From Patescibacteria group bacterium (GTDB lineage Bacteria > Patescibacteriota > Microgenomatia > UBA10105 > UBA927): a DNA stretch of 64,000 nt. Where the stretch lies: assembly GCA_049322955.1 (NCBI GenBank), contig JBMOPU010000012.1, forward strand, positions 147,581-211,580. The letters run 5' to 3'. Under the pieces are notes generated by a model that saw nothing but the letters and a program-made list of their open reading frames with translations, was not told the DNA's origin and searched no databases. Numbering within the stretch: the stretch's first letter is position 1; the number at the start of each line of letters is the position of its first letter. The translations under genes and the position numbers were made by a program. Shown one piece after another: positions 15,348 through 57,775 of the stretch.

Positions 15348-15892
15348 GTGGTCCTCCAGTTTTTGAGCGTTGCCGTACTGTCGGTAAGAAATAATTCCAC
15401 CGCGTCGGCGTTGTTTAATACATCCTTATTTGACGACTTCATCCGTATTTCAGACGTCATCGCAATACCTGCTTCATGATGTGCAATAAGGGCGTTGAGC
15501 AGTCGCAGGTCAAATTTCTCATCGTAGGTGGCGAGATTCGGGATAGCGGGGTCTGTTACTCTTCGTGTATCGTTATACCACGCCCGTTTCCATGAATACA
15601 GCTCGTCAATGAGTTTCGGTTCGTTGTCCAGAATGGCTATCGATAATCCATGGATTTCCGGCCGCTTGCTTTCTTTTTTGGCCACCTCCGCAAGCAACAT
15701 CGCTCCGCGGTGATGGCGAATCATGGCGTTTATATACCGAAGATCCACCCACCGGTCGGGAGTACCAAGTCCCATTGTCTGCTCGCTCTCCATCGTTGCG
15801 GGGTAGGGAGGGGAAGATGCAAAACCGATTCCCATGCCAATAACCAGAGCAACAAGGATGAGTGCAACGCTTAGTGGATACGAAAGTTTCAT
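15329..15892 (-). CDS. DUF305 family (copper-resistance-associated) lipoprotein-like protein
   Basis: Paired HH motifs ([13 protein letters not shown]; [11 protein letters not shown]) follow an N-terminal signal-like segment. The gene lies between csoR and copA. Confidence 0.68.
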
Positions 15893-15904
15893 ATACCTCC
15901 TTTA

Positions 15905-16189
15905 TTAACTTCTTCTTTTTTCCATAATCTTCATGACTTCATCGATGACTTCCTTCGAGTTGCCTTTTTTTATTTCGTCCGCAACACAGGTAACCATGTG
16001 GTTTTTCAGAATTTCCTGATCAGTGCTTCGTAATGCCGCCTGAACGGCAAGTGATTGGTTGATCACGTCAACGCAGTAGTTGCCGTCCTCAACCATGGCG
16101 ATGACACGATCCAGATGACCGCGGGCGATCTTCATGCGGTGGATAATGCGTTGCTGTACGGATTGATTTCGGGGTATTCCTTTTGGCAT
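15905..16189 (-). CDS. csoR: CsoR/RcnR family metal-sensing transcriptional repressor
   Basis: A 94-aa protein with the conserved Cys/His pattern (RGHLDRVIAMVEDGNYCVDVINQSLAVQAAL...HMVTC). An AGGAGG ribosome-binding site precedes it. Confidence 0.8.
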   Translation of the reverse strand: MPKGIPRNQSVQQRIIHRMKIARGHLDRVIAMVEDGNYCVDVINQSLAVQAALRSTDQEILKNHMVTCVADEIKKGNSKEVIDEVMKIMEKRRS

Positions 16190-16228
16190 ACTTCCTCCTG
16201 AGTAAGTAAAATAAGTCTCTTGACTTTT

Positions 16229-16245
16229 ATCCCCCCAGTGGGGAT
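16229..16245. promoter_or_regulatory. CsoR-operator-like GC pseudo-palindrome ATCCCCCCAGTGGGGAT between a -35 TTGACT (16220-16225) and a -10 TATAAT (16245-16250)
   Basis: The core CCCCCAGTGGGG closely resembles known CsoR operators. It lies in the divergent csoR-copA / permease-copZ promoter region. Confidence 0.55.
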
Positions 16246-16264
16246 ATAATCATCCTACCATGTT

Positions 16265-16279
16265 TTGACACACTGTCAA
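16265..16279. promoter_or_regulatory. perfect inverted repeat TTGACA-CAC-TGTCAA in the same intergenic region
   Basis: Read directly from the sequence. It may be a second operator or a -35 element. Confidence 0.4.
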
Positions 16280-16293
16280 GACTCAGAAACAAT

Positions 16294-17301
16294 ATGCCGA
16301 ATCTTTGGATCATATTTACCACGGGATTGTTTGCAGGAGGGCTCACCTGTATGGCAGTACAGGGAGGGATCCTCACCACGGCCCTCACGAGGGAGGAAGA
16401 GGAGTATCCCCGCGTTTCGCGCGGCATGGGAGTTGCCGTATTTTTAATTGCCAAACTTATTTCTCATGCGCTTCTCGGCGCACTATTGGGATACATGGGA
16501 TCACTTATCGGATTAACACCGAGGGTGCAGGCGGTGGGTATCGCGTTGGCGTCACTTTTTATGGCGGGAACCGCGCTATCGTTTCTTGATGTTCATCCCA
16601 TTTTCCGCTACTTCGTTATCCAACCCCCGCGTTTTCTGACCCGGTTTATCCGGGGGAGGGCAAAAGCGGGCGGCTTATTTGCGCCGGCAGTCATCGGGTT
16701 ATTTTCCATATTTATACCCTGCGGTACCACCCAGGCTATGATGGCCCTTGCCGCCGGCACCGGGAGCCCCTGGTGGGGGATGGCAACCCTTGCGGTTTTT
16801 GTGTTGGGTACGGCGCCATTATTCTTTTTACTCGGTCTTTCCATTGATGTGATAAAAGCGACATTGAAAGATAAATTTGGCGTGGTAGCCGCGACACTCG
16901 TCCTCATCCTTGCAGTGGTGAATTTCAACGCCGCGCTACGTTTATATGGATCGCCGATAACGATAACATCGGCACTCCGCAGCATGTTCTGTACGGTCAC
17001 GTTTTGTACGACCAATCCTGCAACAATGGAGCCGACCACAACTCCGGTTATTACATTTTGGCTCAACGGGTATAAAACGGATAACCCGGTTATTCCCAAA
17101 GGAGAAACGATCACGCTTACCCTCGTCAATAAAAGCGGGAGCGGTTGCGTGCAGGCATTCACCATTCCCGCTTTGGGACTTTCTGAAATCGTGCCGGTGG
17201 GACAGGAGAAGACACTGACGTTTCAGGCGCCACTGGAAGGGGATGAGTTGGCATACAGTTGCAGTATGGGTATGTATGGTGGTACGTTTTATCTCAAATG
17301 A
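16294..17301 (+). CDS. polytopic permease (DUF318/COG0701-like, putative metal transporter) with a C-terminal Cys/Met-rich cupredoxin-like domain
   Basis: Six or more hydrophobic helices carry conserved Cys (LTCMAVQGG; IPCGTTQAM). The C-terminal roughly 110 aa is soluble and beta-rich and ends in YSCSMGMYGG. It is translationally coupled (ATGA) to copZ. Confidence 0.5.
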   Translation: MPNLWIIFTTGLFAGGLTCMAVQGGILTTALTREEEEYPRVSRGMGVAVFLIAKLISHALLGALLGYMGSLIGLTPRVQAVGIALASLFMAGTALSFLDVHPIFRYFVIQPPRFLTRFIRGRAKAGGLFAPAVIGLFSIFIPCGTTQAMMALAAGTGSPWWGMATLAVFVLGTAPLFFLLGLSIDVIKATLKDKFGVVAATLVLILAVVNFNAALRLYGSPITITSALRSMFCTVTFCTTNPATMEPTTTPVITFWLNGYKTDNPVIPKGETITLTLVNKSGSGCVQAFTIPALGLSEIVPVGQEKTLTFQAPLEGDELAYSCSMGMYGGTFYLK

Positions 17302-17961: not shown

Positions 17962-18909
17962 ATGGCAGACACACTCTATGACGTCGCTATCGTAGGTTCG
18001 GGGCCCGCTGGATATACCGCGGCGCTTTATGCTTCCCGTGCGTTCTTAAAGACGCTTGTGCTTTCCGGTATGCAACCCGGCGGGCAACTGACTACCACGA
18101 CGGAAGTGGATAACTTTCCCGGTTTTCCCCAAGGTATTCTCGGGCCGACGCTTGTCGGCGATATGAAAAAGCAGGCGGAGCGATTTGGTGCCGAAGTGCA
18201 ACAGGAAATGGTAACCTCAATTGCCAAGGGAGATGTTTTTACCCTTGCGGTCGGTGACAAGAAGTATCAGGCTAAAACGGTTATTATCGCCACGGGGGCC
18301 TCCGCAATGTATTTGGGACTTCCGAGTGAAGAGAAGCTCAAAGGGAAAGGGGTTTCCGGGTGTGCCACCTGTGACGGATTCTTTTTCCGCGGCAAGGTGG
18401 TGGTCGTCGTCGGTGGGGGAGACACCGCCATGGAAGAAGCAACATTTCTGACGAAGTTTTGCCCGAAAGTGACCGTAATTCACCGTCGCGAGGAATTCCG
18501 CGCCTCGGCGATTATGCTTGATCGCGCAAAAAAAGATCCCCGGATTGCCTTTTTGACCAATAAGGTGATTGAAGAGATATTGGGAGAGACGGAAGTGACC
18601 GGCATCCGACTCCGCGATACCAAGACCAACGAGGTTATCGACTACCCGACGCAGGGAGTATTTCTGGCAATTGGTCACAAACCGAGCACCGCTTTTTTAA
18701 CCGGACTTGTTGACCTTGATGCAAAAGGCTATGTCAAAGTAGTGAGATCGCTTTCTCCGTTAGATCCCCAAACTGCCACCAATGTACCCGGCATATTTGC
18801 CGCGGGCGATTGTGTTGATCCCCGGTATCGACAGGCGATCGTTGCCGCGGGACAGGGGTGTATGGCCGCAATGGATGCGGAAAAATATCTTGAAGGGTTA
18901 CATCGTTAA
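17962..18909 (+). CDS. trxB: thioredoxin-disulfide reductase
   Basis: A GSGPAGYTAA FAD motif, the CATC redox centre, and a GGGDTAMEEA NADPH motif are present. Confidence 0.95.
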   Translation: MADTLYDVAIVGSGPAGYTAALYASRAFLKTLVLSGMQPGGQLTTTTEVDNFPGFPQGILGPTLVGDMKKQAERFGAEVQQEMVTSIAKGDVFTLAVGDKKYQAKTVIIATGASAMYLGLPSEEKLKGKGVSGCATCDGFFFRGKVVVVVGGGDTAMEEATFLTKFCPKVTVIHRREEFRASAIMLDRAKKDPRIAFLTNKVIEEILGETEVTGIRLRDTKTNEVIDYPTQGVFLAIGHKPSTAFLTGLVDLDAKGYVKVVRSLSPLDPQTATNVPGIFAAGDCVDPRYRQAIVAAGQGCMAAMDAEKYLEGLHR

Positions 18910-18935
18910 TTCGTTACAACGTCACATCGCACGGT

Positions 18936-19634
18936 ATGGCACAAAAGATCCAGCTGGAAGTTTCAAGAAAAGAACAGGTGACGGAGAAAGTGTATTTCAT
19001 CACCTTCCGTCTTGTTTCCCCGTCATCGCTTTCATTCCGGGCGGGACAAAATATGATGCTTATGATTGCCCCCGGTGTCAATCGTACGATGTCCATCGCA
19101 AGTCCTCCTTCGTCAGCTGATCATCTCCTTATGGTGCATGATGTAAGCCCCATGGGACCGGGATCGCAATGGACGGTGGGACTCAAGGTGGGGGATCACG
19201 CAACGATTGTCGCGCCGACGGGAGGGATTTTATCATTCCTTGATACTCCAAAGCGCAAGGTGATGGTGGCAACCGGAACCGGCATAGCGCCGTTTCATGC
19301 CATGATAGTTGACGCGGTCGAAAAAAAAAGTACCGTTCCTATGATGCTGTACTGGGGTCAGCGGTATGAACATGATGTATATTGGAAAGAAGAATTTGAT
19401 CGCATTGCCGATGAAGTGCCCACCTTTGCCTGGCAACAAATACTTTCCCGTCCGACGCCGGCGTGGCAGGGGCTAACCGGACACGTTACCGAACATATGC
19501 TTTTGCAGGAAAAAAACCTTATTGAGTCCGAATTTTATATCTGCGGAAATAAAGCGATGACCGAAGAGGTGAAAGCAACGCTTTTGGATCATAATGTGCC
19601 GAAAGAGCAAATCAAAACGGAGCTTTTTTATTAA
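18936..19634 (+). CDS. ferredoxin-NADP reductase-type FAD/NAD(P)-binding oxidoreductase
   Basis: The RxxS FAD motif (RTMSIAS) and a GTGIAP NAD-binding motif are present. Confidence 0.72.
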   Translation: MAQKIQLEVSRKEQVTEKVYFITFRLVSPSSLSFRAGQNMMLMIAPGVNRTMSIASPPSSADHLLMVHDVSPMGPGSQWTVGLKVGDHATIVAPTGGILSFLDTPKRKVMVATGTGIAPFHAMIVDAVEKKSTVPMMLYWGQRYEHDVYWKEEFDRIADEVPTFAWQQILSRPTPAWQGLTGHVTEHMLLQEKNLIESEFYICGNKAMTEEVKATLLDHNVPKEQIKTELFY

Positions 19635-19675
19635 TATAAATACAAATAGTGAGTACTTTTTATAGAGGAGGCAAT

Positions 19676-20995
19676 ATGCAACAAAATAACCCGTTTGACA
19701 ATGCGATGCAACAACTCGGTAAGGCGCACGCCGTTCTTGCATCTTCAAAAAAGAAAATAAAAAATATCGATCAGAAAGTAGCGGTATTAAAAGAGCCTCA
19801 ACGAATCGTCAACGTGACCCTTCCCGTCACCATGGATAACGGGGAACAGAAAATATTTCAGGGGTATCGGGTGCAGTTTAATAATGCCAGGGGTCCCTAC
19901 AAGGGGGGGATTCGGTATCACCATAACGTCAGCCTTGATGAAGTGAAAGCGTTGTCTTTTTGGATGGCGATGAAATGTGCCGTGGCAGATCTCCCGCTCG
20001 GAGGAGGAAAGGGAGGCATCATCGTCGATCCGAAAGCGCTGTCACAGGACGAACTGGAACGGTTGAGTCGTGCCTACGGTAAGGCGATAGCTGATCTCAT
20101 CGGTCCCGAGACGGACGTACCTGCTCCCGACGTCAATACCAACGGCGTGATTATGGGGTGGATGGTAGATGAATACGTCAAGGCACAAATGAAGAAAGCA
20201 AAACTTTTCGGCGCTACAATATCAGCAAAAAATGCAAAACGATTAAAAGGAACATTTACGGGAAAAGCGATAGCAGACGGGGGGAGCGAAGGACGTGAAG
20301 AGGCAACAGGGCTGGGCGGCTTATTCGTTCTGCAGGCGATTATTAAAAAGCTTAAACTTTCCGGCACCCTCACTGCCGCTGTACAGGGATTCGGGAATGT
20401 CGGTTACAATGTGGCCAAGTTTTTAGATGAAGCGGGAATTCGGGTAGTTGCCGTATCCGACAGTAAAGGCGGCATTTATGTTCCCGAGGGGATAAATCCG
20501 GCGCTCACCCTCGAGTGTAAGAAGAAAAACGGATACCTTGCCGGTTGTTACTGTTCGGGATCGGTATGCGATCTCAAGAAAGGTAAACAACTGACCAATG
20601 ATGCGTTGCTTGAGCTTCCCGTTGATATTTTGGTGCCTGCCGCACTCGAAAACGCCATAACAGGGAAGAATGCGGGCAAGATCAAAGCAAAAGTTGTGCT
20701 TGAAATGGCGAACGGCCCCACGACGCCGGAAGCGGATACCGTGCTCTATAAGAAGGGTATTCCCGTTATACCCGACATATTAAGCAATAGCGGCGGCGTT
20801 ACCGTTTCCGCCTTTGAGTGGGAGCAGAACCTCAAAGGGCAACATTGGACGAAAGCCCAGGTAAATAAGAAGCTCGCAGGAAAAATGGCGTCAGCCGCCG
20901 AAGCGGTATGGCAGGCATCCGTGACTCATAAAACCGACTTGCGAACCGCGGCATTTGTGGTTGCGTTGGAGCGCATTTTAGCTTCAATGGAGTAA
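19676..20995 (+). CDS. gdhA: glutamate dehydrogenase (Glu/Leu/Phe/Val dehydrogenase family)
   Basis: The catalytic region GGIRYHHNVSLDEVKALSFWMAMKCAVADLPLGGGKGG is present. The start is set at the ATG with a GAGGAGG ribosome-binding site. Confidence 0.9.
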   Translation: MQQNNPFDNAMQQLGKAHAVLASSKKKIKNIDQKVAVLKEPQRIVNVTLPVTMDNGEQKIFQGYRVQFNNARGPYKGGIRYHHNVSLDEVKALSFWMAMKCAVADLPLGGGKGGIIVDPKALSQDELERLSRAYGKAIADLIGPETDVPAPDVNTNGVIMGWMVDEYVKAQMKKAKLFGATISAKNAKRLKGTFTGKAIADGGSEGREEATGLGGLFVLQAIIKKLKLSGTLTAAVQGFGNVGYNVAKFLDEAGIRVVAVSDSKGGIYVPEGINPALTLECKKKNGYLAGCYCSGSVCDLKKGKQLTNDALLELPVDILVPAALENAITGKNAGKIKAKVVLEMANGPTTPEADTVLYKKGIPVIPDILSNSGGVTVSAFEWEQNLKGQHWTKAQVNKKLAGKMASAAEAVWQASVTHKTDLRTAAFVVALERILASME

Positions 20996-21044: not shown

Positions 21045-21074
21045 TTGACAATGGGGAGTCGTCACCCATACTAT
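21045..21074 (+). promoter_or_regulatory. sigma70-like promoter TTGACA-18-TACTAT upstream of the first cluster gene; palindrome TCCTATAGGA at 21007-21016
   Basis: Read directly from the sequence. Confidence 0.5.
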
Positions 21075-21110: not shown

Positions 21111-21731
21111 ATGGCTGAAGGATTTGAAAAAACAACATTTCAGGAAGCGATAAGTGAAAGCGCCGTCGGCAAAGCCGTACGGGGAGCTATTTCCGAAGTT
21201 CAGCAAACCAATAAGGAATATTGGGATATACGGCAGGATATAGAGGGCAGAAAGAACGCCTCAGGAAAAGGGGTGTATAAACACTATGTCGAGAACATGG
21301 ATAAGATTCTGCACCACATGTATGCGGGCAAAGAGCTTGGTGTGGTCGGAAAAGTTGCCGAATTTTCCCAAAAAGTAGGAGCGAGAGTAGAGGCGGCGGT
21401 TGTATCTTTCGGTGCGGCAACCCTTGATATCCCGTATAACGTATTAACATGGCTTCCGCGTAAAATGAGCCCCTTCGGGCCGCCCAAGGATGTCTTTAAG
21501 CGATTGGCGCTTGCCCGTTTTGATATCAAGCTCGGACTTCGTGCCGCGGGGGCGGGTATTATGCGAGGGGAACTTGGGGTAGCGAAAGCCGTTCGCACCG
21601 GAGCAGAAGCGGTGTTGAGCGCTCCTGAGATTGCCGTACGTATGGCAAAGAAAAAGGTTGATCGCGTGGTGAACTGGATCAAAAGCCCGTTTGCCGAAGG
21701 CAAACCGTCAACACCCAAAGCGAGGCCATAA
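21111..21731 (+). CDS. hypothetical basic Gly/Ala-rich protein (cluster protein P1)
   Basis: Preceded by an AGGGAGG ribosome-binding site. It contains a GxxxG-rich segment (GLRAAGAGIMRGELGVAKAV). No known domain was recognised. Confidence 0.65.
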   Translation: MAEGFEKTTFQEAISESAVGKAVRGAISEVQQTNKEYWDIRQDIEGRKNASGKGVYKHYVENMDKILHHMYAGKELGVVGKVAEFSQKVGARVEAAVVSFGAATLDIPYNVLTWLPRKMSPFGPPKDVFKRLALARFDIKLGLRAAGAGIMRGELGVAKAVRTGAEAVLSAPEIAVRMAKKKVDRVVNWIKSPFAEGKPSTPKARP

Positions 21732-21756: not shown

Positions 21757-22086
21757 ATGGATGACAAACTGCGCGCCGTGGTAACGAGAGTCGAATTGTC
21801 AAAGCTTACCGAAAGCGAGAAAGAAGACGTCTATACCGCGCTTGCCGAGGGACTGCAGTCTACCGTCTGGCCGATTCTTATTAAATACATGCCGAAAGAT
21901 CAGCTCGATGATTTGGCGGCAAATCCGACCAAGGTCAATCTGGAAACATACGGCAAACTGATCGAAGATTCCGTAAAAGACGGACAAGCGTTAAAAGAAA
22001 TCGAAGCATTGATGCAGGATATCTTAACGGCTGTCGATAAGACCCTTACGGAGCAGGGAGTTCCCGAACTTCCGAGCACCGGCTAA
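21757..22086 (+). CDS. small acidic partner protein S1, paralog of the 22773 and 37397 genes
   Basis: It shares the motif LSxSEKExxYTxxAEGLQSTVWPxxxKYMP with the ORFs at 22773 and 37397. Confidence 0.7.
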   Translation: MDDKLRAVVTRVELSKLTESEKEDVYTALAEGLQSTVWPILIKYMPKDQLDDLAANPTKVNLETYGKLIEDSVKDGQALKEIEALMQDILTAVDKTLTEQGVPELPSTG

Positions 22087-22089
22087 CCT

Positions 22090-22737
22090 ATGACGGAAGT
22101 AACACCACCGGTTGAAACTCAAAAGCTTTCCGGAGCGGCAAGGATTGTTGAAAGCCTCAAAAAATGGTCGCACGACCATCTGACGCTCCAGGGTAGAGAG
22201 GACAATATCTATCTTAAAAAATACGCGCAGATCGCGGAAAAACTTCCCCAAGATATGTCTGAAAATCATATGGCGCTTCTTGAGATGCGACTGCGAAAGG
22301 ATGCGCACAGTGCCGCGGTCGGCTCCATTATCGTAGACGCATTGATGACGGGAGGGGTGCTTGTCGGGGCGGGTGCGCTATTAAAGAAAGTTGATTTTGC
22401 ATTTCCCAAGTTTGAACGAAAAATACGGACGGCACCAAGGCCCGTGCCGCCACGAGAACAAGTCGTGCCGCCACCGCCAAAAGCAAATGAACCTGCCAGG
22501 TGGAGTCTGTTTGCCTTTGCCAAAAAAGTAAGTCGTATCCTTGAAGGGCATGGTGAAGATGTCGATATGGACAAAGTGGTAGCGGGTGCCGATACAATGC
22601 TTGATAAAGCGGCAAAAGTGAAATGGGATGCCCCTGCTGATTGGATGGAGAAGGGGATTGATAAAGCCGGAAAGGGTCTTCAGAAACTCTGGGGATGGCT
22701 TGACGGTTCCTTAGGCAAACTTGCGGACAATATGTAA
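22090..22737 (+). CDS. hypothetical protein P2 with a glycine-zipper segment
   Basis: GGVLVGAGALL is followed by a Pro-rich linker. The start is 4 nt after the S1 stop. Confidence 0.6.
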   Translation: MTEVTPPVETQKLSGAARIVESLKKWSHDHLTLQGREDNIYLKKYAQIAEKLPQDMSENHMALLEMRLRKDAHSAAVGSIIVDALMTGGVLVGAGALLKKVDFAFPKFERKIRTAPRPVPPREQVVPPPPKANEPARWSLFAFAKKVSRILEGHGEDVDMDKVVAGADTMLDKAAKVKWDAPADWMEKGIDKAGKGLQKLWGWLDGSLGKLADNM

Positions 22738-23109: not shown

Positions 23110-23937
23110 ATGACCGAAGTAGGAATGTCACCTGAGCGACAAGGATGGTTTGCGGGGCTCAAAGAAAAAGTCCGCAAGTCTTTTACCGTCCAGGGCGCGA
23201 AAGAAAAATTTTATCAGAACAACAGCGAACTTATCGCCAAAGCAACGGCAAACCTTTCCCCCGAGGATAAGCAGGCGGCATATGCCCAGATTGAACAGGA
23301 TGCGCTATCTTCGGCCAAAGTCGATGTTGCAACCCATTGGGGTGCCCTAGTATTGGGTACCACCGTTGCCGGTCTCGGCGGTGCGCTCCTAAACGACAAA
23401 GTCCGCGGGAGAGTAGGCGAGATGGGTAACTTCGGCAAAAAAGTTGCTGGTCTCGGTGACAAGGCAAAAGACGGGCTGATGCGGCTGGTCAGCCGTTTCA
23501 ATTTCCGAAGAGAGGGGAGTAGTAAGGGCCCCATTAATGTGGATGCAGTTTCCGAATCTATCAAGTCTGCCGCCGGTTATAAGCAACGGGTGGATGCGCT
23601 TACCCAGATGATCAACAGTGGAAAATATCAGGGCGAGGCATTGACCCGACTGCGAAGGAAACAAAGGTTGGCAATGCTAGATTTACGACGTGCCGACGCC
23701 TTGCTTTCCGGTCGTCCCGAGCTTAACAAAGTGCAGGAATTGTCCCGGCAAATCCAAGAAGCGATAAAGGCCGGCAAACCGGTTGATGATTTGGTGCGGC
23801 GACGAACTGACATGCAAAACGGATTGAATGATATTTTGTCTGCACGGAGAAAAGCCGGATTCAAAGGTTTGGAACGGGGCGACGTAAGCAACTATCAGAA
23901 AAAGATAGATGCCATAAAGGCTCGCAACAGATCCTAA
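23110..23937 (+). CDS. hypothetical protein P3 (glycine-zipper plus coiled-coil-like C-terminus)
   Basis: A GAAGGAGG ribosome-binding site precedes it. It contains VLGTTVAGLGGALL. The C-terminal half is Arg/Lys-rich and helical. Confidence 0.6.
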   Translation: MTEVGMSPERQGWFAGLKEKVRKSFTVQGAKEKFYQNNSELIAKATANLSPEDKQAAYAQIEQDALSSAKVDVATHWGALVLGTTVAGLGGALLNDKVRGRVGEMGNFGKKVAGLGDKAKDGLMRLVSRFNFRREGSSKGPINVDAVSESIKSAAGYKQRVDALTQMINSGKYQGEALTRLRRKQRLAMLDLRRADALLSGRPELNKVQELSRQIQEAIKAGKPVDDLVRRRTDMQNGLNDILSARRKAGFKGLERGDVSNYQKKIDAIKARNRS

Positions 23938-24032
23938 CGTCCTATTCTTCACTTTGTTGCCATACGCTGGATCAGCATATCTTGGGAAGTTATCTGTGTT
24001 TGTGGTGATGGAACAGCTCGTGCGTTACGAAG

Positions 24033-24062
24033 ATACACGAAAATACGCGTAAATACGCTACA
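24033..24062 (+). repeat. three tandem imperfect 10-bp repeats (ATACACGAAA / ATACGCGTAA / ATACGCTACA) overlapping the -10 TACAAT of the ABC gene promoter
   Basis: Read directly from the sequence. Confidence 0.5.
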
Positions 24063-24071
24063 ATAGTGGAT

Positions 24072-26297
24072 ATGACCGCAGAAGCGATCGGCAAACGACA
24101 GGAAGTTCCCCGTATTCAGGAATCAGGGCTGAACTTTTCTCCCGAATCGTTGGTTGCCGCGGGAAAACTCGCCTCAGAGATTGCCGCCAATACCCCCCCT
24201 GAAGCTTCCGACGTTTCCCAAATGGTAAAGACGATAGGCAGTGATCTGGCCAAAGAGGGACTTCCCATAGCAAAAGAAGACTATAAAGCCGTGATGAAGC
24301 AAGCGGAGGCCGCGTATCTTCGTCACCGCGGACAGCAAACGGTTCCCGAGCATACCCCCGACATTGAAACCGTCTCTCCGATAGATCTTGCCGAATACAG
24401 GGATGTGATGGGGGAGCTCTTTAAAACATATAAATTAGGAAGCGGCAGTTGGCAGACGGTGACCGGCATTTATGGAGCTACCGACCTTATCGGCAACGTG
24501 ATCGGCGGGTACCAGACGAAACCGTGGATAAGCGAAGAATCCCGGAAGGCATTTACGGAAAAAGTAGAAGGGGGACTTGAGCTTCTTCAGGCACGGCAAA
24601 CGCCGTTACAGGAGCTGGGCCGCACCCTCAAGCGTCTGCCCGCCGAAACAAAGAAAAAAGCCGCCGGGCTACTCCTTTCTGCTACCTGGCCGTGGGTCGC
24701 AGGAACGGCTCATTGGTTTATCGGCAGACAAGCGGAAAAATTTGCGCATAAACTCATCGTGCGGGAGGGAATGAATTTACAGAAGGCCGTCAATACCCGT
24801 ATCGCCGAATCGTTATTTATGCGGGATTTTGAGTTTCTTCATGACAAACCCGCGGGAGAAATCATGGAGATTGTTAACAACGGCAAATTATCGACCATTG
24901 ATCTGGTTCGTGTTACGTACACGGAGTTTCTTCCGACGATTTTGGGCATACTAAGCCAGTTGCCCCGCCAATATGTTACCGGAAAATTGGAATTTATGTC
25001 TTCACTTATCAAAATGCCGTTTCTTTTAATGCGCAGTGAACAAAACGCGAAACTTATGCAAGAAAATAGAGCGGCTGAACTTGCCAAAATGGATAAAGTG
25101 AACACGAAGCTCATGACCACGCTTGCCGGTCTTGAATCGGTGCGAACATCAGGAAATGCGACCGGCGGATCGGTAAGTATGCTTGATCTGTTAACGGAAC
25201 GTGACACGGTGGCGGGGAAGGGTCTTCGCCAAAAACTCGCGGGACAACGGCAGATGAATATGTTCTTTGACGTGATGGATGTCGCCCTGCCGTTTATGAG
25301 CGAGGCGTTGCAGTTTAATAAACAACGTCCACCGGGCAAGCTGTCGGGGGAGGGAGCATTTAACTTCGGTGTCGATGCACTGTCACGGGTGATTAACTCC
25401 AAGAATCAACAGATGGAGCTTCGTGCGGCATTTGCCGGTTTGACGAGACTCTATGTCGATAACATTATTCCCGATATTCAGGATATCAAGCGCATGGAGG
25501 AACTCCTCGGCAAATACGACGCGTTAGATAGGCCAAACGGCCCTCGGGAACGGGCTCGGGTTGCGGTGGGGAAGTTGACGAACACGGATATTCGTGTCGA
25601 GAACCTTTCTTATAAAGGCATCATCAATAACGTTTCCCTGGATATCCCGCAAGGATCATTCGTGACCATTAAGGGCGAGTCCGGAACGGGGAAAACGACA
25701 TTCATCCGTAATCTTGTCGGTCTTTACACGCCGGAATCGGGATCGGTGACGATTGGCGGCGTCCCCATCGACGGCATAAAAAAGTACGGAACCGAATCGG
25801 TATCGAGTATTGTCGGCTATGCCAATCAAAACCCTCAGATTCTTGAAGGCATGACTCTCAAGGAAAACTTGTTGTTATGGTCCCAACAGCAGGTTCCCGA
25901 TGCGGTACTGACGAAAACACTTAAGGATCTCCGTTTGGAGCATCTTACCGATAGACTTGATAAAGCGACCAAGCATTTTTCGGGCGGTGAACTTCGGCGT
26001 ATCGGCATAGCCCGGGCGCTTCTGAAAAATCCGAAAATACTTGTGCTTGATGAACCGACCGCAAGCCTTGATGAAGCGTCAGCACAGCAGGTCATGGATA
26101 TCATCCAGCGTTTGCGAATAGAGCGTCCTGATATGACGGTGGTTGCCATTACCCATGACCCGGTATTTGAAAATATCTCCGAGCGTATCATAGATTTTTC
26201 ACAGATAAATAAGTCAAGGTCATCGGAAGCATACGGAAACCGTCAGCTCAAAGATCACCAGATATTGGAAGCAATTGCCCGGCCGAAGCGGCCGTGA
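24072..26297 (+). CDS. ABC-exporter-like protein: divergent, weakly hydrophobic N-terminal domain fused to a C-terminal ABC ATPase
   Basis: Walker A (GESGTGKTT), the signature FSGGELRRIGIARAL, and Walker B (ILVLDEPTASLD) are present. The N-terminal 500 aa carry exporter-TMD-like coupling-helix motifs (FEFLHDKPAGEIMEIVNNGKLSTIDLV) but show little hydrophobicity. Confidence 0.82.
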   Translation: MTAEAIGKRQEVPRIQESGLNFSPESLVAAGKLASEIAANTPPEASDVSQMVKTIGSDLAKEGLPIAKEDYKAVMKQAEAAYLRHRGQQTVPEHTPDIETVSPIDLAEYRDVMGELFKTYKLGSGSWQTVTGIYGATDLIGNVIGGYQTKPWISEESRKAFTEKVEGGLELLQARQTPLQELGRTLKRLPAETKKKAAGLLLSATWPWVAGTAHWFIGRQAEKFAHKLIVREGMNLQKAVNTRIAESLFMRDFEFLHDKPAGEIMEIVNNGKLSTIDLVRVTYTEFLPTILGILSQLPRQYVTGKLEFMSSLIKMPFLLMRSEQNAKLMQENRAAELAKMDKVNTKLMTTLAGLESVRTSGNATGGSVSMLDLLTERDTVAGKGLRQKLAGQRQMNMFFDVMDVALPFMSEALQFNKQRPPGKLSGEGAFNFGVDALSRVINSKNQQMELRAAFAGLTRLYVDNIIPDIQDIKRMEELLGKYDALDRPNGPRERARVAVGKLTNTDIRVENLSYKGIINNVSLDIPQGSFVTIKGESGTGKTTFIRNLVGLYTPESGSVTIGGVPIDGIKKYGTESVSSIVGYANQNPQILEGMTLKENLLLWSQQQVPDAVLTKTLKDLRLEHLTDRLDKATKHFSGGELRRIGIARALLKNPKILVLDEPTASLDEASAQQVMDIIQRLRIERPDMTVVAITHDPVFENISERIIDFSQINKSRSSEAYGNRQLKDHQILEAIARPKRP

Positions 26298-26312: not shown

Positions 26313-27374
26313 ATGGAAAAAACTGCCCATACTGAAGCTATGAATGATTTTTCGCCGGAAACACCCGAATCGCGAATATCCGTGTCACCTGAATTAGGGC
26401 AACGGATAGGGGAAGCTAAGTCGGGGATTGAAGAAAATAGGGACATGCCGGCTTCAGAAATAGCCACCAACACCGAACAAATGGGGCTTCTTGCTTCTTT
26501 GGGCGGGCTGTATAAGGATATGGCCAAAAAGAAGCTCGGTATCGCATTCAAAGATGTGAAAGCGGCGCTTGCCATTGTTCCCTTTGTTCCTCTCGCCAGC
26601 GAAGCGATAGCGGTAGCAAAGGGAGGGGCAAAATTGGAAAGTATTGCTACGAAAGTGCATAAGGCCGCGTATGCGGAGTCCGCCGCAATCAAGGCTCAAA
26701 AAACGGCAAATAAAGCGGAGCGTTGGGCAAAATGGTTTCGCAAAAGCGAAAAAGCGCAACAGCGATTGGGTGCGGCGAAGGACGCACTGGGAATCGCAAA
26801 CGCTGAAGCATCCACCGCCACTGCCGCGGCAAAGAAGGCTTTGGAACGGGGATTGAAACAGGGAGTGCCTGTTGAGGGATCGGCCTCACGATTCGTGCGC
26901 AAACATATTGTTCATGACATCCGTGATGCCGACTATGTACTTAATTACGAAAAAGCGATAAAAAGCGGTAAAGCGTTGACCGATGCGGAAAAAATACTTT
27001 CCACGGCAACGGGGGAAGTTGCGGCAAAAACGTTTGGGGAAAAAGCGGTTCATAAGGCAAAAACAATCGGCAAACATACGCTTCTTCACTCGCTAGGCCC
27101 CATCATCGATCCGACGCCGAATGTCCCACATGCGGTTGTGCTGGGCTCATTTGGTGCGGAATTATTCGGTCAAGTATGGGCGGGACTTATTCCGCCCGTC
27201 TGGCAGTATCTTCACAACCGATATGAAGACGTCAAAGTCGGGTGGGATACGGCGGTCAAAGCCAAAGATATTATCACAACGCATTTTTCTCAAAAAGTCG
27301 ATAAACTGAAAACACCGGAAGTGGCAAAAGCCGCCGAGGTTTTTGTGCCGTCAGATGCTCCCGCGGCACCATGA
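26313..27374 (+). CDS. hypothetical Ala/Lys-rich helical protein P4
   Basis: A 353-aa protein with amphipathic helical repeats. Its start is 13 nt after the ABC stop. Confidence 0.6.
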   Translation: MEKTAHTEAMNDFSPETPESRISVSPELGQRIGEAKSGIEENRDMPASEIATNTEQMGLLASLGGLYKDMAKKKLGIAFKDVKAALAIVPFVPLASEAIAVAKGGAKLESIATKVHKAAYAESAAIKAQKTANKAERWAKWFRKSEKAQQRLGAAKDALGIANAEASTATAAAKKALERGLKQGVPVEGSASRFVRKHIVHDIRDADYVLNYEKAIKSGKALTDAEKILSTATGEVAAKTFGEKAVHKAKTIGKHTLLHSLGPIIDPTPNVPHAVVLGSFGAELFGQVWAGLIPPVWQYLHNRYEDVKVGWDTAVKAKDIITTHFSQKVDKLKTPEVAKAAEVFVPSDAPAAP

Positions 27375-27378
27375 TGCT

Positions 27379-27651
27379 ATGAATAAAAAAATCGCGCTTG
27401 TCACCCTCATTGAAGCGAGTATCATCCTGTCGGATGAAGATAGGCTTATGTTGCTTGATTTGGTGCCAGGACTTACCGAAAAACAGGTGGATGCGCTGGG
27501 CAAGTTTTTCGCCCTGGAGCGCAAATTTGTTTTGAGCAATGAGGATGATGTAAAACAAAAGATTGAATCATTGCTTACCGGTCTGGATCGACAGGATACC
27601 GATACTGTGTATGTAGGGAGCGGGAATGCATTCGACCAAGGAACAAAATAA
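27379..27651 (+). CDS. small acidic partner protein S4
   Basis: A 90-aa protein starting 2 nt after the P4 stop. Its N-terminal LSDEDRLMLLDLV motif resembles those of the other small partners. Confidence 0.55.
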   Translation: MNKKIALVTLIEASIILSDEDRLMLLDLVPGLTEKQVDALGKFFALERKFVLSNEDDVKQKIESLLTGLDRQDTDTVYVGSGNAFDQGTK

Positions 27652-27699: not shown

Positions 27700-28593
27700 A
27701 TGGCAGAGAGTATCATCAAAGACTTTAAAGGAAAAAACGATTGGGTCTATGTCGGTAAAAGTGAAGCCCCGAAACCTTCCGAGAAAAAAGCTGACACGTT
27801 ATTTCATCAGTATATGCAGGAAGTGTTTGACGTGGCGGCTCCCGTGATGATCGGCGAGCTTGACGGGGCGGCAGGGGCGCAAGCGGCCCTTGCCTCTGCA
27901 ACGCTTTCGCTTGCAGACAAAGCGCATACCGACGCCACTTCAACCGCCTCCCTCCCGGATAAATCAACATTTGCCAAACGATGGCTCGCGCTGGAACAGC
28001 GGGTCGGCAATGATGATCACCAAAATAGGTTGGGAAAGCTTCTGACCAGTTTTGTATATATGGGCGGGTCATTTGCTATGAACCTGGGGAGCGAAGTGGT
28101 TGCCGATGTATTGTATCGCGGCAAATCGAAAGTACCGCTCCCTCTGGGACGTTCCATCAACATCTCAAAAGAAACGGGTAATCAGCGCATGCTTGACGCA
28201 GGCTGGGAGTATCTCACCGATTATGGGGTCGAAAAAACGGTGGACTGGTCGGCTCAGAAGCTGGCCAATCGGGAAAATATCGGCTTTGTTTCGCCGCTCT
28301 CGCGTGCGATCAGTAAAATCGGCAACACGATTATCAATGCCACGAGAAATTTTGATGAACATAATTTTTCCACGGCCGTAAAACGCTCGCTCTTAAGCCC
28401 GGGATTTATCGAAGGGGCGTTTCGTTTTGCAGGTGCGCTTCCGGGCGGCGGATTTATCAAGGAATTGTACGGCAAAGCCAATAAACAAATCATGAAAGGG
28501 GAAGGAGTCATTCCCTTGGGAGCTGATCTTGCGTTTAACATGATATTTGCCAAGGTGCTTTACAAGATGCAACAGGGAGGAGCAAAGCCATAA
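27700..28593 (+). CDS. hypothetical protein P5
   Basis: A 297-aa protein with GELDGAAGAQAALASA and a C-terminal Gly-rich region. Confidence 0.6.
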   Translation: MAESIIKDFKGKNDWVYVGKSEAPKPSEKKADTLFHQYMQEVFDVAAPVMIGELDGAAGAQAALASATLSLADKAHTDATSTASLPDKSTFAKRWLALEQRVGNDDHQNRLGKLLTSFVYMGGSFAMNLGSEVVADVLYRGKSKVPLPLGRSINISKETGNQRMLDAGWEYLTDYGVEKTVDWSAQKLANRENIGFVSPLSRAISKIGNTIINATRNFDEHNFSTAVKRSLLSPGFIEGAFRFAGALPGGGFIKELYGKANKQIMKGEGVIPLGADLAFNMIFAKVLYKMQQGGAKP

Positions 28594-28911
28594 ATGGATA
28601 TATCGATACAGCAATTTTGTGATCAGGTACTGCGAAGTCGGGCTCTTTCTCAGGAACAGAAAGAACTGCTCGTTGCCGATCCTGAAGCATTGCCGTCCTC
28701 ATACCGTGAGGAGGTTGCGGCCATTCTCTCGGCATTTGACGACCAATCGATGCAACGGGAGGAGTACCTACGAAATGCCGTGGAAGACCGTATGCGGCAG
28801 TTTGAAAAAAAACTTGAAGAAGAGGGGACTGATGCGCCGACGACGCATGCATTACTCAAAAAGGCAAAAGCGTTGAGTGCATCATTGTTTCCCGTAAAGC
28901 ACGTTGTTTGA
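28594..28911 (+). CDS. small acidic partner protein S5
   Basis: Its start abuts the P5 stop. It carries LSQEQKELLVADPEAL. Confidence 0.55.
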   Translation: MDISIQQFCDQVLRSRALSQEQKELLVADPEALPSSYREEVAAILSAFDDQSMQREEYLRNAVEDRMRQFEKKLEEEGTDAPTTHALLKKAKALSASLFPVKHVV

Positions 28912-28947: not shown

Positions 28948-29934
28948 ATGCAACACCATCATGAAATACCGCAGTGGCACCCGCCCCAAGAAGCGATGCC
29001 CGCCAAGGAAGGCAATTTGACGAAGGAGCAGTCGCTCTTTCAACGGCTGGGAGTAGCCGTAGCGGAAACGGTCAAAGATATCCGTGATGCAAATGATATG
29101 GCGAAACGAAAGTTTGATGGAGATAGCGCGCTGATGCGCGTAGCTCGTGGTGCGCTGACCGGTGCGGTTGGCGCGGGGCTTGAACTTGCCACGGATGATA
29201 TGTTTAGTAAGGCCTGGCGGGGGGAAGGACCTATCTTCGAGCGATTTATCATGGGTGAAAATACCGGCAAAAAACTCGCAAAACTTTCGGAACAACATCC
29301 CAGGATTTCCCATTTTGTGAAAGAAGGTACCCAAGATGTTGCACTCGCGGCGCTTTACAACTTTATCGCCTATAGGTCACAGCCGATTTTTACCCAAGTC
29401 GAATCACCTCATGTGCTTCGGTCGCTCACCGCGGATGCTTTGGAAGCCGGATTTATCAACAGCATCCCGGCGGAAATGAAAACAGCGGTTTCTGCCATAA
29501 ATCAACCCAAAGTGGATAGGTGGCAACATCAGCGTCGTCGTTTTCGGCGCCCTAAGCAAAAAAAATATCCCTTGGGGGGTGAAGGTTCGGAGATGATGAT
29601 GAATGATTTTTTCAAAAAAAAGCCTTCAGCAGATATGCAAGCCGCACGAATATCGGGGAAAAATACCCCAGGAACTGTCCCCGAGAGGCAGGGGGTATTG
29701 GGAAATGTCTTTAATCTTTCCAATCCCGTTACGCAACTAGGTCTTGAGATGGTATGGTCGGGCATGACCACCTTTGCAAAAAACTTTAGTGAACTGAGGA
29801 AAACACGCAAAGTGAATGAATGGTCGGGTGGCAAAGCAACGGTATCGGGAAAAGGAGAGAACGTGTATTACGGGAATTCGCATGGGAAATACACAAAGAG
29901 AAGGGGGTATGATGAGCGACTTGACGATCTATAA
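28948..29934 (+). CDS. hypothetical protein P6
   Basis: A 328-aa protein with GALTGAVGAGLELA and a basic C-terminal tail. Confidence 0.6.
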   Translation: MQHHHEIPQWHPPQEAMPAKEGNLTKEQSLFQRLGVAVAETVKDIRDANDMAKRKFDGDSALMRVARGALTGAVGAGLELATDDMFSKAWRGEGPIFERFIMGENTGKKLAKLSEQHPRISHFVKEGTQDVALAALYNFIAYRSQPIFTQVESPHVLRSLTADALEAGFINSIPAEMKTAVSAINQPKVDRWQHQRRRFRRPKQKKYPLGGEGSEMMMNDFFKKKPSADMQAARISGKNTPGTVPERQGVLGNVFNLSNPVTQLGLEMVWSGMTTFAKNFSELRKTRKVNEWSGGKATVSGKGENVYYGNSHGKYTKRRGYDERLDDL

Positions 29935-30202
29935 AAAGATACAAAATACCAAGCTGTTTAGCGATGCGCAGAAAGTGGCGCTTCTTGTTGCCATTGTTGA
30001 TGCCACCGATGAGGATAAAGCAAAACTGGAAGCCGGCATTGACGAATTCGACGCACGTTACGACAACGCCATTAAAAAGCATACGGCACAGATACAGTCA
30101 CTCCTGGGACACACGATGAAGGACCTTACCCCGGAAGAGAAAAAAGCTCAGGAAACGGCATTGCGATCGATCAGAGCTGGCTTTGGACTTCTGACCTCGT
30201 AA
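29909..30202 (+). CDS. small acidic partner protein S6
   Basis: The ribosome-binding site AGAAGGGGG lies inside the 3' end of P6, giving a 26-nt overlap. The protein carries LFSDAQKVALLVAIVDATDEDKAKLEAG. Confidence 0.55.
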   Translation: MMSDLTIYKKIQNTKLFSDAQKVALLVAIVDATDEDKAKLEAGIDEFDARYDNAIKKHTAQIQSLLGHTMKDLTPEEKKAQETALRSIRAGFGLLTS

Positions 30203-30286: not shown

Positions 30287-31012
30287 ATGTCAAAAGAATC
30301 ACAACCAACCAGAGCCTATACGCCGGCGGAACAAGGGTTCCAGCGCCTGCTCATTCGCGAACAGAAGCATGAATCCCAGCCGGGTGACGGTCTCCGACGA
30401 CTGGGAATCAATTCCTCGCTCCTGATCGGATCAACCGCTCTTGATCTTGCCGAAAGTCATCTTGTCGATGCCGTGATTCGAAATCCCATGCATGATAGGA
30501 TTCATCAAATTAAGGAAAAGGGACCCAACTTTACCGAACAGGCAAAGCGGGCACAAGGCGTGCAATTTGCCGCCGAATTCGTTGAAGAGTGGGCATCCGA
30601 CAGTATTTATGCCAATATGGCAAATGCATGGGTTCGTGCCATGACCGGTATGGATGATGCTAAGTATGTTTCCGAAACCGCCGCATTCCTTGCGGAGTGG
30701 GGGAACGTCATTTCCCAGGTATTTTTGGCAGACAGACTGTATGGGAAGACAAAGACACATCACGGACATACGGTGCCGCAAACATATGGCAAGGTGAAAC
30801 TTGCCTACGCGTCGGCTGACTTTTTGAATCCCGTCAACGTCGAAGCGGCGATCCGGGTGATGGAAGAAGTACCCGTTATCGGGAAAGCAGTCTCCTGGAT
30901 GCATGATAAGACGGATCATTTGCTGGAAACCGCCGCCGTTCGGCTCGGGAGCGGCATTGCCGGAAAAGGTATTCTCGGCTATCATATCGGACGAAACGTA
31001 AAAGCGTTATAA
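30287..31012 (+). CDS. hypothetical protein P7
   Basis: Preceded by a CTATAGG element and a TATACT -10. The C-terminus is GSGIAGKGILGYHIG. Confidence 0.55.
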   Translation: MSKESQPTRAYTPAEQGFQRLLIREQKHESQPGDGLRRLGINSSLLIGSTALDLAESHLVDAVIRNPMHDRIHQIKEKGPNFTEQAKRAQGVQFAAEFVEEWASDSIYANMANAWVRAMTGMDDAKYVSETAAFLAEWGNVISQVFLADRLYGKTKTHHGHTVPQTYGKVKLAYASADFLNPVNVEAAIRVMEEVPVIGKAVSWMHDKTDHLLETAAVRLGSGIAGKGILGYHIGRNVKAL

Positions 31013-31033: not shown

Positions 31034-31903
31034 ATGACAGCAGAGACACTAAGCGTACGAATACAGTATCCGCAGGATAATCCCATCTCGGCTGAGAAAA
31101 CCTCCTCTCAGGATGGCGCCGCGATCTGGAAGAAAGCATATGCGGAATCCCGACAAAAGCATTGGCAACAGGTATTCCAAGTCGGTGACTATTCCCCCTA
31201 TGACAAAGCGCGCAAGCTCCCGCAGGGTACTGCGCTTCGTGAGGCACTCTACGAATCTCTCACCGATCCGATTTCTTTTGTAACGCATATCGGCGAACAT
31301 ATCCGTAAGGTCGATACCGATCTTCGCGGCGGAAAAGATATCGGGGGTGCGAAAGAGCGATGGGAGCGAGTCGGGGCATTTGCCAGTATGGCGGTGCTCT
31401 TTACCGCATTTGATTACGCAACAAGTAAGCCATTTGAGCGATTTTTTCCCATGATAAAGAATAAGGTATTAACCCCTGAGGAACTTCGTCTGAATGCGCG
31501 GATGGGGGCGATGAAAAAGATCCTTGACGTCATGAACGATAAATACGCGACGGCATTAGGCAATATGCTGGTAGAGAAAATTTCCGGCAAGCGGGGATTT
31601 ATCCATGAAGTGGCGGATAAGGGTGCAGACACCATCCAATCGGGATTTGAGGAAACCAATGACTTGGTCAACGGCGCAACACTGGAAAGTTATATGCGGA
31701 TTTTTTCTCAGGTACCGATTGTGGGAGCGTTATTTGAGCAGGGGATGACCCGTCTTTCCCTGTTGCAGGAAAAGTCATCGCTCCACACCGCTACGGGCAA
31801 AATGCTTTATATGGCGCTTGGCGTATTTATCCGAGATAATCGAAAAGCAGACAAAATGGATGGCGCTTCTTTGGCAGGACTTATTGCCAGGACAATCCTT
31901 TAA
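31034..31903 (+). CDS. hypothetical protein P8
   Basis: A 289-aa protein with the N-terminus MTAETL. No domain was recognised. Confidence 0.55.
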   Translation: MTAETLSVRIQYPQDNPISAEKTSSQDGAAIWKKAYAESRQKHWQQVFQVGDYSPYDKARKLPQGTALREALYESLTDPISFVTHIGEHIRKVDTDLRGGKDIGGAKERWERVGAFASMAVLFTAFDYATSKPFERFFPMIKNKVLTPEELRLNARMGAMKKILDVMNDKYATALGNMLVEKISGKRGFIHEVADKGADTIQSGFEETNDLVNGATLESYMRIFSQVPIVGALFEQGMTRLSLLQEKSSLHTATGKMLYMALGVFIRDNRKADKMDGASLAGLIARTIL

Positions 31904-31956: not shown

Positions 31957-32105
31957 ACCTTTTGCCTTTGTTCGCCAATTATCGGCGATACGGAATGCGG
32001 AGGCAAGACTTTTCTTTTTCATGAGAATCACCACTTCATACAAAACCGACCTTTTTGGGCGACGTTTGCGTGTGATGTAGAACTTCTTACAAGGAGAGAG
32101 TCCCG

Positions 32106-32133
32106 ATCCCGCATAAAAGGCGGGATTTTTTTA
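32106..32133 (+). terminator. hairpin (ATCCCGC-N7-GCGGGAT) followed by a T7 run: an intrinsic terminator or boxB-like leader hairpin
   Basis: Read directly from the sequence. It lies between the promoter and tRNA-Ala. Confidence 0.5.
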
Positions 32134-32211: not shown

Positions 32212-32284
32212 GGGCCCGAAGTTTACCTGGTTGAACGCTTCATTTGCAATGAAGAGGCAGGCGGTTCGACTCCGCCCGGGTCCA
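32212..32284 (+). tRNA. tRNA-Ala(UGC)
   Basis: A manually folded 73-nt cloverleaf: acceptor GGGCCCG/CGGGTCC with the G3:U70 Ala identity pair, anticodon loop TTTGCAA, T-loop GGTTCGACT, discriminator A. CCA is not encoded. Confidence 0.88.
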
Positions 32285-32349
32285 CCGATGTTCTTGTATC
32301 GGGAGTAGCTACATATATATGTATATACTCTCGCGACAAGAGCGCGAGT

Positions 32350-32362: not shown

Positions 32363-32529
32363 TATTGCCAAATGACTTCTTGTAAGACAGGTGAAATTCC
32401 TGCTCTACAAGAATTGAAAGTAATGAAGTAATGAGGTAGTTGCCGCGTAAGGGGGAGTGAATCCCACTTATCGTGGCCATTTTTAGTTGAGGGAACAAGG
32501 GTCGTCTTCGAGACGAATCTTTTGTTCTC

Positions 32530-35840
<3,311 letters not shown>

Positions 35841-35967
35841 GGAACAAAGGACGTTTTTTGCCGAGAGGCAAAAACACCTTGTTTCTCTTGGCGAAAATGA
35901 CACGAAAAGTCGGTCATTCTCCCTTATGTTGCAATTACCTTTATAATAAGAAAAGATTTTATCGTTG

Positions 35968-36086
35968 AGCCTTTCGGTCTCTTACGCGATGTGGTACCAC
36001 CCTTTCCCATTCCGAACAGGGAAGTGAAACACATTAGCGCCAACAATACTCGTTTCGCAAGGAACCTGGAAGATAGGTCGAGGCCG
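35968..36086 (+). rRNA. rrf: 5S ribosomal RNA (approximate ends)
   Basis: Conserved blocks CCCATTCCGAACAGGGAAGTGAAAC and TAGCGCCAACAATACT are present. The length is about 119 nt. Confidence 0.75.
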
Positions 36087-36113
36087 GGGGACTCAACGAT
36101 AAAACGGCAAATT

Positions 36114-50697: not shown

Positions 50698-50701
50698 ATT
50701 G

Positions 50702-51988: not shown

Positions 51989-52058
51989 GTTTTCAATTGT
52001 ATCAAATAGGATTTTTCTTGCAGAACCGGATGTCGGTGCAGTATATAATGAATCCCAT

Positions 52059-57744: not shown

Positions 57745-57775
57745 CTTAAGAGGTATAACACGGGAGCAAGTCCAC

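Follow-up and report, generated by a model that had tools for sequence, protein, structure and literature searches.

An ABC ATPase with a predicted exporter fold and a non-hydrophobic helical domain in a conserved gene cluster of Patescibacteria

We analysed an ATP-binding cassette (ABC) ATPase gene in a 64,000-nucleotide stretch of the genome of a Patescibacteria group bacterium (assembly GCA_049322955.1, contig JBMOPU010000012.1, positions 147,581 to 211,580 of the forward strand; hereafter the window, with position 1 as its first letter). The encoded protein, here called the ABC protein, descends from type IV ABC exporters. It is most likely not a conventional integral-membrane pump, because its six-helix domain has lost the hydrophobic belt while its length and coupling loops have been kept. 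Tentatively, we favour a soluble or peripherally membrane-attached, exporter-derived ATPase that would power the 14-gene cluster in which its gene lies.

Domain layout, ATPase motifs and fold

The gene and its domains are located as follows.

24072–26297, plus strand: ABC ATPase gene (741 amino acids [aa]; ATG at 24072, stop codon at 26295–26297), encoding an exporter-fold half-transporter homolog with a non-hydrophobic helical domain
24072–24386, plus strand: N-terminal extension, residues 1–105, with three short helices and a disordered linker; the fastest-evolving part of the protein
24387–25508, plus strand: exporter-like helical domain, residues 106–479, from the AlphaFold2 model, Foldseek, hydropathy and the variability test
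25569–26207, plus strand: nucleotide-binding domain (NBD), residues 500–712, from Pfam and motifs

An in-frame GTG at 24066 is an alternative start of this open reading frame (ORF), less likely than the ATG because homologs begin MTAE; close homologs are labelled Gottesmanbacteria. The original prediction had described 500 N-terminal residues with exporter-like coupling-loop motifs followed by a canonical NBD, and the peptides it quoted were all found (AAGLLLSATWPWVAGTAHWFIG at residues 197–218, FEFLHDKPAGEIMEIVNNGKLSTIDLV at 253–279 and LESVRTSGNA at 354–363). The N-terminal part is present, and its description as one block of 500 residues is corrected here to an extension of ~105 aa plus a six-helix domain of ~375 aa. 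A database search with residues 1–123 returned no match, and kinship of the extension with the cluster proteins (a shared 'FSPE' motif with the cluster protein c07, listed below) was rejected at hhalign probabilities of ≤ 11%.

Pfam matched ABC_tran alone (residues 519–664, E = 7e-32), and neither ABC_membrane nor Peptidase_C39 was matched; the 741 residues include no cysteine, in line with the C39 peptidase Cys motif having been reported as missing. The motifs that define the ABC ATPase superfamily (PF00005) were all in place, namely Walker A (G535–T542), the Q-loop (Q586), the signature (F636–SGGE640), Walker B with the catalytic glutamate (D660–E661) and the H-loop (H695), which upholds the earlier description of the NBD as canonical. 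GESGTGKT, NQ586, FSGGE, LDE661PT and TH695D were invariant across the ABC family and every tandem paralog, and by sequence the NBD was nearest to the ABCB family. Judged by these motifs, the ABC protein is catalytically competent.

An AlphaFold2 monomer model built on a 25-sequence alignment (predicted local distance difference test [pLDDT] 73.8) contained an elbow helix (residues 106–120) followed by six long helices of 26–60 residues each (127–152, 191–250, 261–303, 305–352, 363–418 and 426–479), all N-terminal to the NBD. Two coupling loops were located at residues ~251–260 (DFEFLHDKPAGE) and ~353–362 (LESVRTSGNA), and the peptides formerly likened to such loops thus sit at the two intracellular coupling loops of the modelled fold. 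This is the arrangement of type IV exporters, at moderate model confidence. Foldseek searches of the PDB aligned full-length type IV exporters over 600–650 columns with E values of 1e-17 to 1e-18 (Rv1273c/72c, MsbA, IrtAB, TAP, Atm1, TM287/288, PCAT1, McjD and Sav1866, and also CydDC chains); the comparison with Sav1866- and MsbA-type folds that the original prediction had proposed therefore matched the exporter fold (E ~1e-18).

Sequence-level homology to the transmembrane (TM) domains of exporters was weak, and the case therefore rests on the fold. PF00664, for which type IV exporters give a significant match, found none in the query even at E ≤ 1; it was sub-threshold in 3 of 12 relatives (best E 0.002), and one distant relative has a weak precomputed match. 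A weak link in register was seen to ABCB6, from intracellular loop (ICL) 1 through TM3 and TM4 to ICL2 (E = 0.11), and hhalign aligned the helical domain with the TM domain of type I secretion system (T1SS) exporters in register at helix 4/ICL2 (30.6% probability). Alignments by tblastn to T1SS and PCAT (peptide) exporters began at residue ~195–245.

Hydrophobicity, selection and distribution

Hydropathy was scored as the 19-residue Kyte-Doolittle (KD) mean, with a usual threshold of 1.6, and three canonical exporters were scored identically as controls. Hessa-scale values were summed per segment, and 114 T1SS sequences formed the canonical family for comparisons of mean segment KD, variability and charge; control sequences came from plasmid records and a T1SS family. 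The top KD mean anywhere in the ABC protein was 1.21, and the maxima of the six candidate segments were 0.73–1.21 compared to 1.5–3.0 in the controls, in agreement with the weak hydrophobicity first noted for the TM-like segments. Summed Hessa-scale values for the six segments were +6 to +12 kcal/mol, cf. about −2 to +8 kcal/mol in the controls, and membrane-equivalent segments had a mean KD of 0.39, cf. 1.83 in canonical exporters. Charged residues accounted for ~16% of the tip segments (21 across the six 22-residue helix tips) relative to 3.9% in the T1SS family, and 7 Lys/Arg fall in loop 1, which joins helices 1 and 2 and would be extracellular, contrary to the positive-inside rule.

The pattern of substitution in the helix tips also differed from that of canonical exporters. 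The most variable third of tip positions had a mean KD of −0.21 compared to +2.35 in the T1SS family, the most conserved third had +0.66 compared to +1.05, and the Spearman correlation between hydropathy and variability was −0.16 (P = 0.07) compared to +0.23 (P = 0.008). By these measures the substitution pattern of the tips is of the soluble-protein type, though the correlation is weak. Overall, the six hydrophobic membrane spans of a type IV exporter were not recovered by KD, Hessa-scale values, tip charges or substitution pattern. The same held in relatives, whose TM-like segments the original prediction had proposed to compare: the family-averaged 19-residue KD profile peaked at 1.09, all 34 close and ~70 distant relatives were sub-canonical in hydrophobicity, and the segments were non-hydrophobic across nearly all of them.

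A genome-wide bias to weak TM helices was rejected as an explanation, with a CopA-like ATPase and a DsbD-like protein encoded in the window reaching KD peaks of 2.2–2.7; weak hydrophobicity is therefore specific to the ABC protein. Three minus-strand ORFs (585, 672 and 594 aa) considered as exporter controls from within the window turned out not to encode ABC proteins, and the window has no canonical exporter.

Relative to the closest DNA homolog (88% aa identity), the ratio of nonsynonymous to synonymous substitution rates (dN/dS) was 0.022 in the tips, 0.018 in the cytoplasmic parts of the helices, 0.019 in the NBD and 0.24 in the N-terminal extension, values that are approximate because dS is near saturation. 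Since the tips are as constrained as the NBD (dN/dS ~0.02), the polar helical domain is kept by selection and is not decaying. The suggestion of a 'degenerate or soluble exporter relative' thus stands as regards an exporter-type domain with non-hydrophobic helices and falls as regards degeneration in the sense of decay.

A search with the N-terminal 505 aa retrieved 34 protein clusters, which were 657–771 aa in length except for one truncated entry, none with PF00664. Among 1.84 billion representatives, a helical-domain profile matched only 75 proteins at E ≤ 1e-3, and canonical exporters were not reached. About half of these matches belonged to a distant ~780-aa subfamily with an N-terminal region of ~290 aa and likewise sub-canonical hydrophobicity; for this subfamily the cluster was not seen on three short contigs with neighbouring genes, and a fourth contig had none. 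In a scan of 185,579 species genomes, 17 loci were found, the named ones being from Gottesmanbacteria, Woesebacteria or 'Patescibacteria group', and we regard the label 'Gammaproteobacteria' on several bulk-submitted metagenome-assembled genomes with ABC loci as unreliable. The family spans 25% to 100% identity, with the same cluster context in many genomes. Two or three tandem ABC paralogs occurred in loci L002, L004, L009–L014, L016, L018–L020 and L023; all were weakly hydrophobic with intact ATPase motifs, and the middle paralog (~620–660 aa) lacked the N-terminal extension.

The gene cluster, upstream elements and the rest of the window

The original prediction had spoken of a surrounding cluster, and the ABC gene indeed belongs to a conserved syntenic one, with constant gene order in ~15 loci from Gottesmanbacteria and Woesebacteria. 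The conserved order starts with genes for thioredoxin reductase-like, ferredoxin-NADP reductase (FNR)-like and glutamate dehydrogenase proteins and continues with a protein of ~103 aa (sA), present one to three times and interspersed with larger proteins, followed by c05, one to three tandem ABC paralogs, and then c07, sB, c09, sC, c11, sD, c13 and c14. Only one ABC gene is present in the window; it is orthologous to the paralog that comes last in other loci. Apart from the ABC gene, the cluster and its candidate boundaries in the window comprise the following.

21045–21074, plus strand: candidate cluster promoter by consensus match (TTGACA, 16–18 nt, TACTAT), downstream of the glutamate dehydrogenase gene and ahead of c01
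21111–21731, plus strand: c01, 206 aa, basic, no database match; first cluster gene
21757–22086, plus strand: c02 (sA), 109 aa, small acidic helical protein, paralog of c04
22090–22737, plus strand: c03, 215 aa, with one Gly/Ala-rich, moderately hydrophobic segment
22773–23084, plus strand: c04 (sA), 103 aa, small acidic helical protein
23110–23937, plus strand: c05, 275 aa, strongly basic, with a glycine-zipper-like segment; start chosen after AAGGAGG
26313–27374, plus strand: c07, 353 aa, basic; follows the last ABC gene in loci where it was detected
27379–27651, plus strand: c08 (sB), 90 aa, small acidic protein of a family shared with c10 and c12
27700–28593, plus strand: c09, 297 aa, all-alpha, paralog of c13 and c14
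28594–28911, plus strand: c10 (sC), 105 aa, small protein
28948–29934, plus strand: c11, 328 aa, basic
29909–30202, plus strand: c12 (sD), 97 aa, small protein
30287–31012, plus strand: c13, 241 aa, c09 family
31034–31903, plus strand: c14, 289 aa, c09 family; last cluster gene
32105–32127, plus strand: terminator-like hairpin with a T-run by consensus match, after c14

Profile-profile comparison grouped these proteins into the families sA (c02 and c04), sB/sC/sD (90–93% probability) and c09/c13/c14 (91–98%). The cluster is modular, in that small acidic proteins of ~90–109 aa (two families, five genes; median net charge −1 to −9.5) alternate with larger basic or neutral ones, and c01, c05, c07 and c11 carry net charges of +9 to +13. 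A consistently TM-grade hydrophobic segment was found in none of the 13 cluster protein families, and of 14 c07 orthologs, only 4 had a hydrophobic segment that reached TM level. Searches of Pfam, NCBIfam, PHROGs and PADLOC returned no match for any neighbour of the ABC gene in the cluster, and a model of c09 had no PDB or viral fold match. The ABC ATPase is the sole recognisable enzyme of the cluster.

The N-terminal ~70 residues of c09 are strongly conserved yet disordered in the AlphaFold2 prediction, with M1, E3, S4, F9, G11, D14–G19 and others nearly invariant within residues 1–72 (27700–27915); this N-terminus may serve as a peptide for docking or recognition. Immediately before the cluster lies a copper/redox gene set (12996–17301 and 17962–20995), encoding a CopA-like P-type ATPase, a DsbD_2-cupredoxin protein, thioredoxin reductase-like and FNR-like proteins and glutamate dehydrogenase, and its position is kept in distant relatives.

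Two elements were located immediately upstream of the ABC gene.

24028–24058, plus strand: 10-bp tandem repeat, 3.1 copies (consensus CGAAAATACG; Tandem Repeats Finder [TRF] score 41, 85% matches)
24058–24063, plus strand: TACAAT, a −10-like hexamer, 8 nt before the ATG at 24072

The three tandem 10-bp repeats earlier placed at the −10 element were recovered by TRF as a small repeat that occupies the spacer directly upstream of TACAAT and adjoins it; its period-10 score was equalled nowhere else in the window. A consensus scan called no sigma-70-type promoter at the repeats because a −35 match was absent. A role of the repeats as a conserved regulatory element was rejected, none being seen by eye in the upstream regions of orthologs. 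The arrangement TACAATAG..-ATG was kept upstream of ABC orthologs in 6 of 7 other loci examined from Gottesmanbacteria and Woesebacteria (L002, L012, L015, L016, L017, which has TATAAT, and L025; L005 lacks the hexamer). The conserved string among orthologs, TACAATAG(R)G..T-ATG, was kept even with only ~25 nt to the preceding gene. Eight genes of the window have TA[CT]AAT 5–12 nt before the start codon, the other starts being at 767, 12346, 23095, 36178, 39877 and 52059 on the plus strand and 51988 on the minus strand. Such placement points to transcripts with a very short leader or none at all, or to an element of translation initiation that has been conserved.

Elsewhere, the window contains an rRNA/tRNA region in which tRNA-Ala(TGC) precedes a 23S rRNA gene interrupted by a group I intron and then a 5S rRNA gene, with no 16S gene adjacent.

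32212–32286: tRNA-Ala(TGC)
32527–35844: 23S rRNA
35193–35543: group I intron
35973–36089: 5S rRNA

The tRNA-Ala genes with anticodons GGC and CGC lie side by side at 57516–57745, bringing the total in the window to three tRNA-Ala anticodons. A run of large membrane-protein ORFs (45584–54311) includes a PMT-family glycosyltransferase-like protein (47247–49262, minus strand), a DUF2298 protein (51948–54311, plus strand) and two ORFs of ~590 aa for which Pfam returned no match. The window also encodes an ATP-dependent DNA ligase (3347–5062), which has three ligase domains, and the termination factor Rho (54498–56195).

Comparison with known systems and alternative explanations

Type IV exporters (Sav1866, MsbA, TM287/288, Atm1 and ABCB; PF00664 plus PF00005) resemble the ABC protein in having a helical domain followed by an NBD with consensus motifs, and in the elbow, six long helices and two coupling loops. 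Unlike them, the ABC protein has no membrane-grade helices, its variable positions are polar, PF00664 is not matched, a 105-aa N-terminal extension is present and no TxVGExG X-loop was recognised by eye ahead of the signature. T1SS and peptide exporters (HlyB/PrtD/LapB and PCAT/ComA/LanT) gave the best tblastn and NCBIfam alignments reaching beyond the NBD and, as for these systems, neighbouring proteins without an obvious signal peptide (by eye) would be possible cargo. The ABC protein differs from PCAT in lacking a C39 peptidase or C39-like domain and any cysteine, and from T1SS in the absence of HlyD/TolC partners and in scores of 107–115 bits with T1SS models whose cut-offs are 510–693. 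Its NBD and the linker from the last helix to the NBD align to the CydD and CydC models, and one source labels a close homolog a CydDC thiol/heme exporter; the scores, however, were 138.5 bits for a cut-off of 435 and 130.5 bits for a cut-off of 329, there is no cytochrome bd context and the helices are non-hydrophobic.

ABCF/EttA, ABCE1, SufC, UvrA and Rad50/SMC use ATP-driven NBD dimerisation for mechanical work and carry out no membrane transport. If soluble, the ABC protein would by analogy resemble these ATPases in putting NBD dimerisation to mechanical use. They have tandem NBDs or unrelated partner domains and none has an exporter-type six-helix domain, whereas here, in comparison with ABCF, ABCE, UvrA and SMC/Rad50, a single C-terminal NBD follows such a domain.

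In the soluble or peripherally attached ATPase that we favour, the ABC protein would act as a homodimer; where relatives carry two or three tandem paralogs, these probably form heterodimers. On binding ATP, the paired NBDs would close, the conserved coupling loops would transmit this movement, and the helical bundle would open and close, acting on proteins and not on a solute crossing the bilayer. The likeliest clients would be the products of the cluster, that is, its larger, mostly basic proteins with their small acidic partners of ~100 aa, on which the ATPase might act, either in the cytoplasm or on the surface of the membrane, by loading, releasing, assembling or delivering them. We infer from sequence the choice between solubility and membrane association, the cellular location, the dimerisation and the role of the cluster proteins as clients. 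With somewhat more reserve, a type IV exporter fold may here have become the water-soluble, ATP-driven motor of an undescribed, Microgenomates-specific multi-protein system with no integral-membrane component.

Several observations weigh against this soluble or peripheral ATPase. Its basis is sequence together with one monomer model of moderate confidence, in which pLDDT was 56–70 over residues ~300–440; the correlation in the tips was weak; the dN/dS values, as noted, are approximate; and a few relatives reach KD values of 1.7–2.1 in one or two helices. In addition, five weak hydrophobic maxima fall exactly on the membrane-equivalent ends of helices 1–5, and helix 2 bears a Trp-rich stretch (WPW...HWF) at its tip. 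The Trp-rich tip and these residual maxima make some peripheral membrane contact plausible.

These same maxima, together with the complete exporter architecture and retained helix lengths, would be accommodated by a genuine membrane exporter whose polar TM domain is shielded by partners or by a higher-order oligomer, and which exports the signal-less cluster proteins in the manner of a T1SS- or PCAT-like system of a monoderm, with the small acidic proteins as chaperones. We consider this main alternative possible, if doubtful. T1SS and peptide exporters are the closest sequence matches, no obvious N-terminal signal peptide was read by eye in the cluster proteins, the small acidic/large basic layout recalls chaperone-substrate pairs, and moderately hydrophobic segments rich in Gly/Ala occur in c03, c05 and c07. 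Such an exporter is hard to reconcile, however, with a query and most relatives that have no TM-level segment, with the 21 charged tip residues and the Lys/Arg-rich 'extracellular' loop, which breaks the positive-inside rule, and with variable positions that are polar and not lipid-like. Furthermore, a conserved TM helix that could provide the shield is absent from all cluster proteins, and no HlyD/TolC-type partner was found among the neighbours with Pfam and NCBIfam. An improbable alternative would be a soluble carrier gated by ATP, its exporter fold turned inside out, with conserved, moderately hydrophobic positions lining a central cavity for lipids or other hydrophobic cargo; it would help a lipid-auxotrophic Patescibacterium to handle scavenged lipids with amphipathic helical cluster proteins. 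Patescibacteria are not known to synthesise lipids, and MsbA- and ABCB4-type relatives, which are among the fold matches, handle lipids. The conserved tip positions are hydrophobic and the variable ones polar, and the cluster proteins are helical and Ala/Lys-rich. Nevertheless, an identical conservation pattern is expected of any soluble helical bundle, and the cluster contains no lipid-metabolism genes. That the ABC protein serves as ATPase in a module that is mobile, derived from a phage or used in anti-phage defence is very improbable: the PADLOC models of ABC-type ATPases that match the NBD (mad3, mad8 and AriA) cover generic motifs only, which leaves NBD-level matches and none of the partner genes of a defence ABC/OLD-type ATPase. 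No neighbour belongs to a PADLOC or PHROG family, no viral fold matches the c09 model, and the chromosomal position after the thioredoxin reductase-like, FNR-like and glutamate dehydrogenase genes is fixed in distant lineages. Loss of the hydrophobic helices could in principle mean degeneration, but the ORF is intact with every ATPase motif present, dN/dS is ~0.02 in tips and NBD alike, and relatives down to 25% identity share the cluster context in many genomes; a functionless ORF, whether a decaying exporter relic or a mis-call, can hardly account for this.

To our knowledge, every characterised protein with the exporter fold is an integral membrane transporter, and in the literature, which was incompletely covered, we found neither this ABC family nor the cluster described, nor any soluble ABC protein with an exporter fold. 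If the soluble or peripheral ATPase is borne out, the exporter scaffold would be reusable outside the bilayer, with fold and ATPase kept in the absence of the hydrophobic belt, and the ABC protein would offer a soluble model for the study of how NBDs drive helices. The basic helical proteins and their small acidic partners might constitute a new protein-handling or delivery apparatus in host-dependent, ultra-small bacteria. In a cluster of 14 genes and ~11 kb with no database annotation, the ABC ATPase is the only experimental handle, and thus offers a starting point for work on the unknown proteins encoded by host-dependent Patescibacteria.

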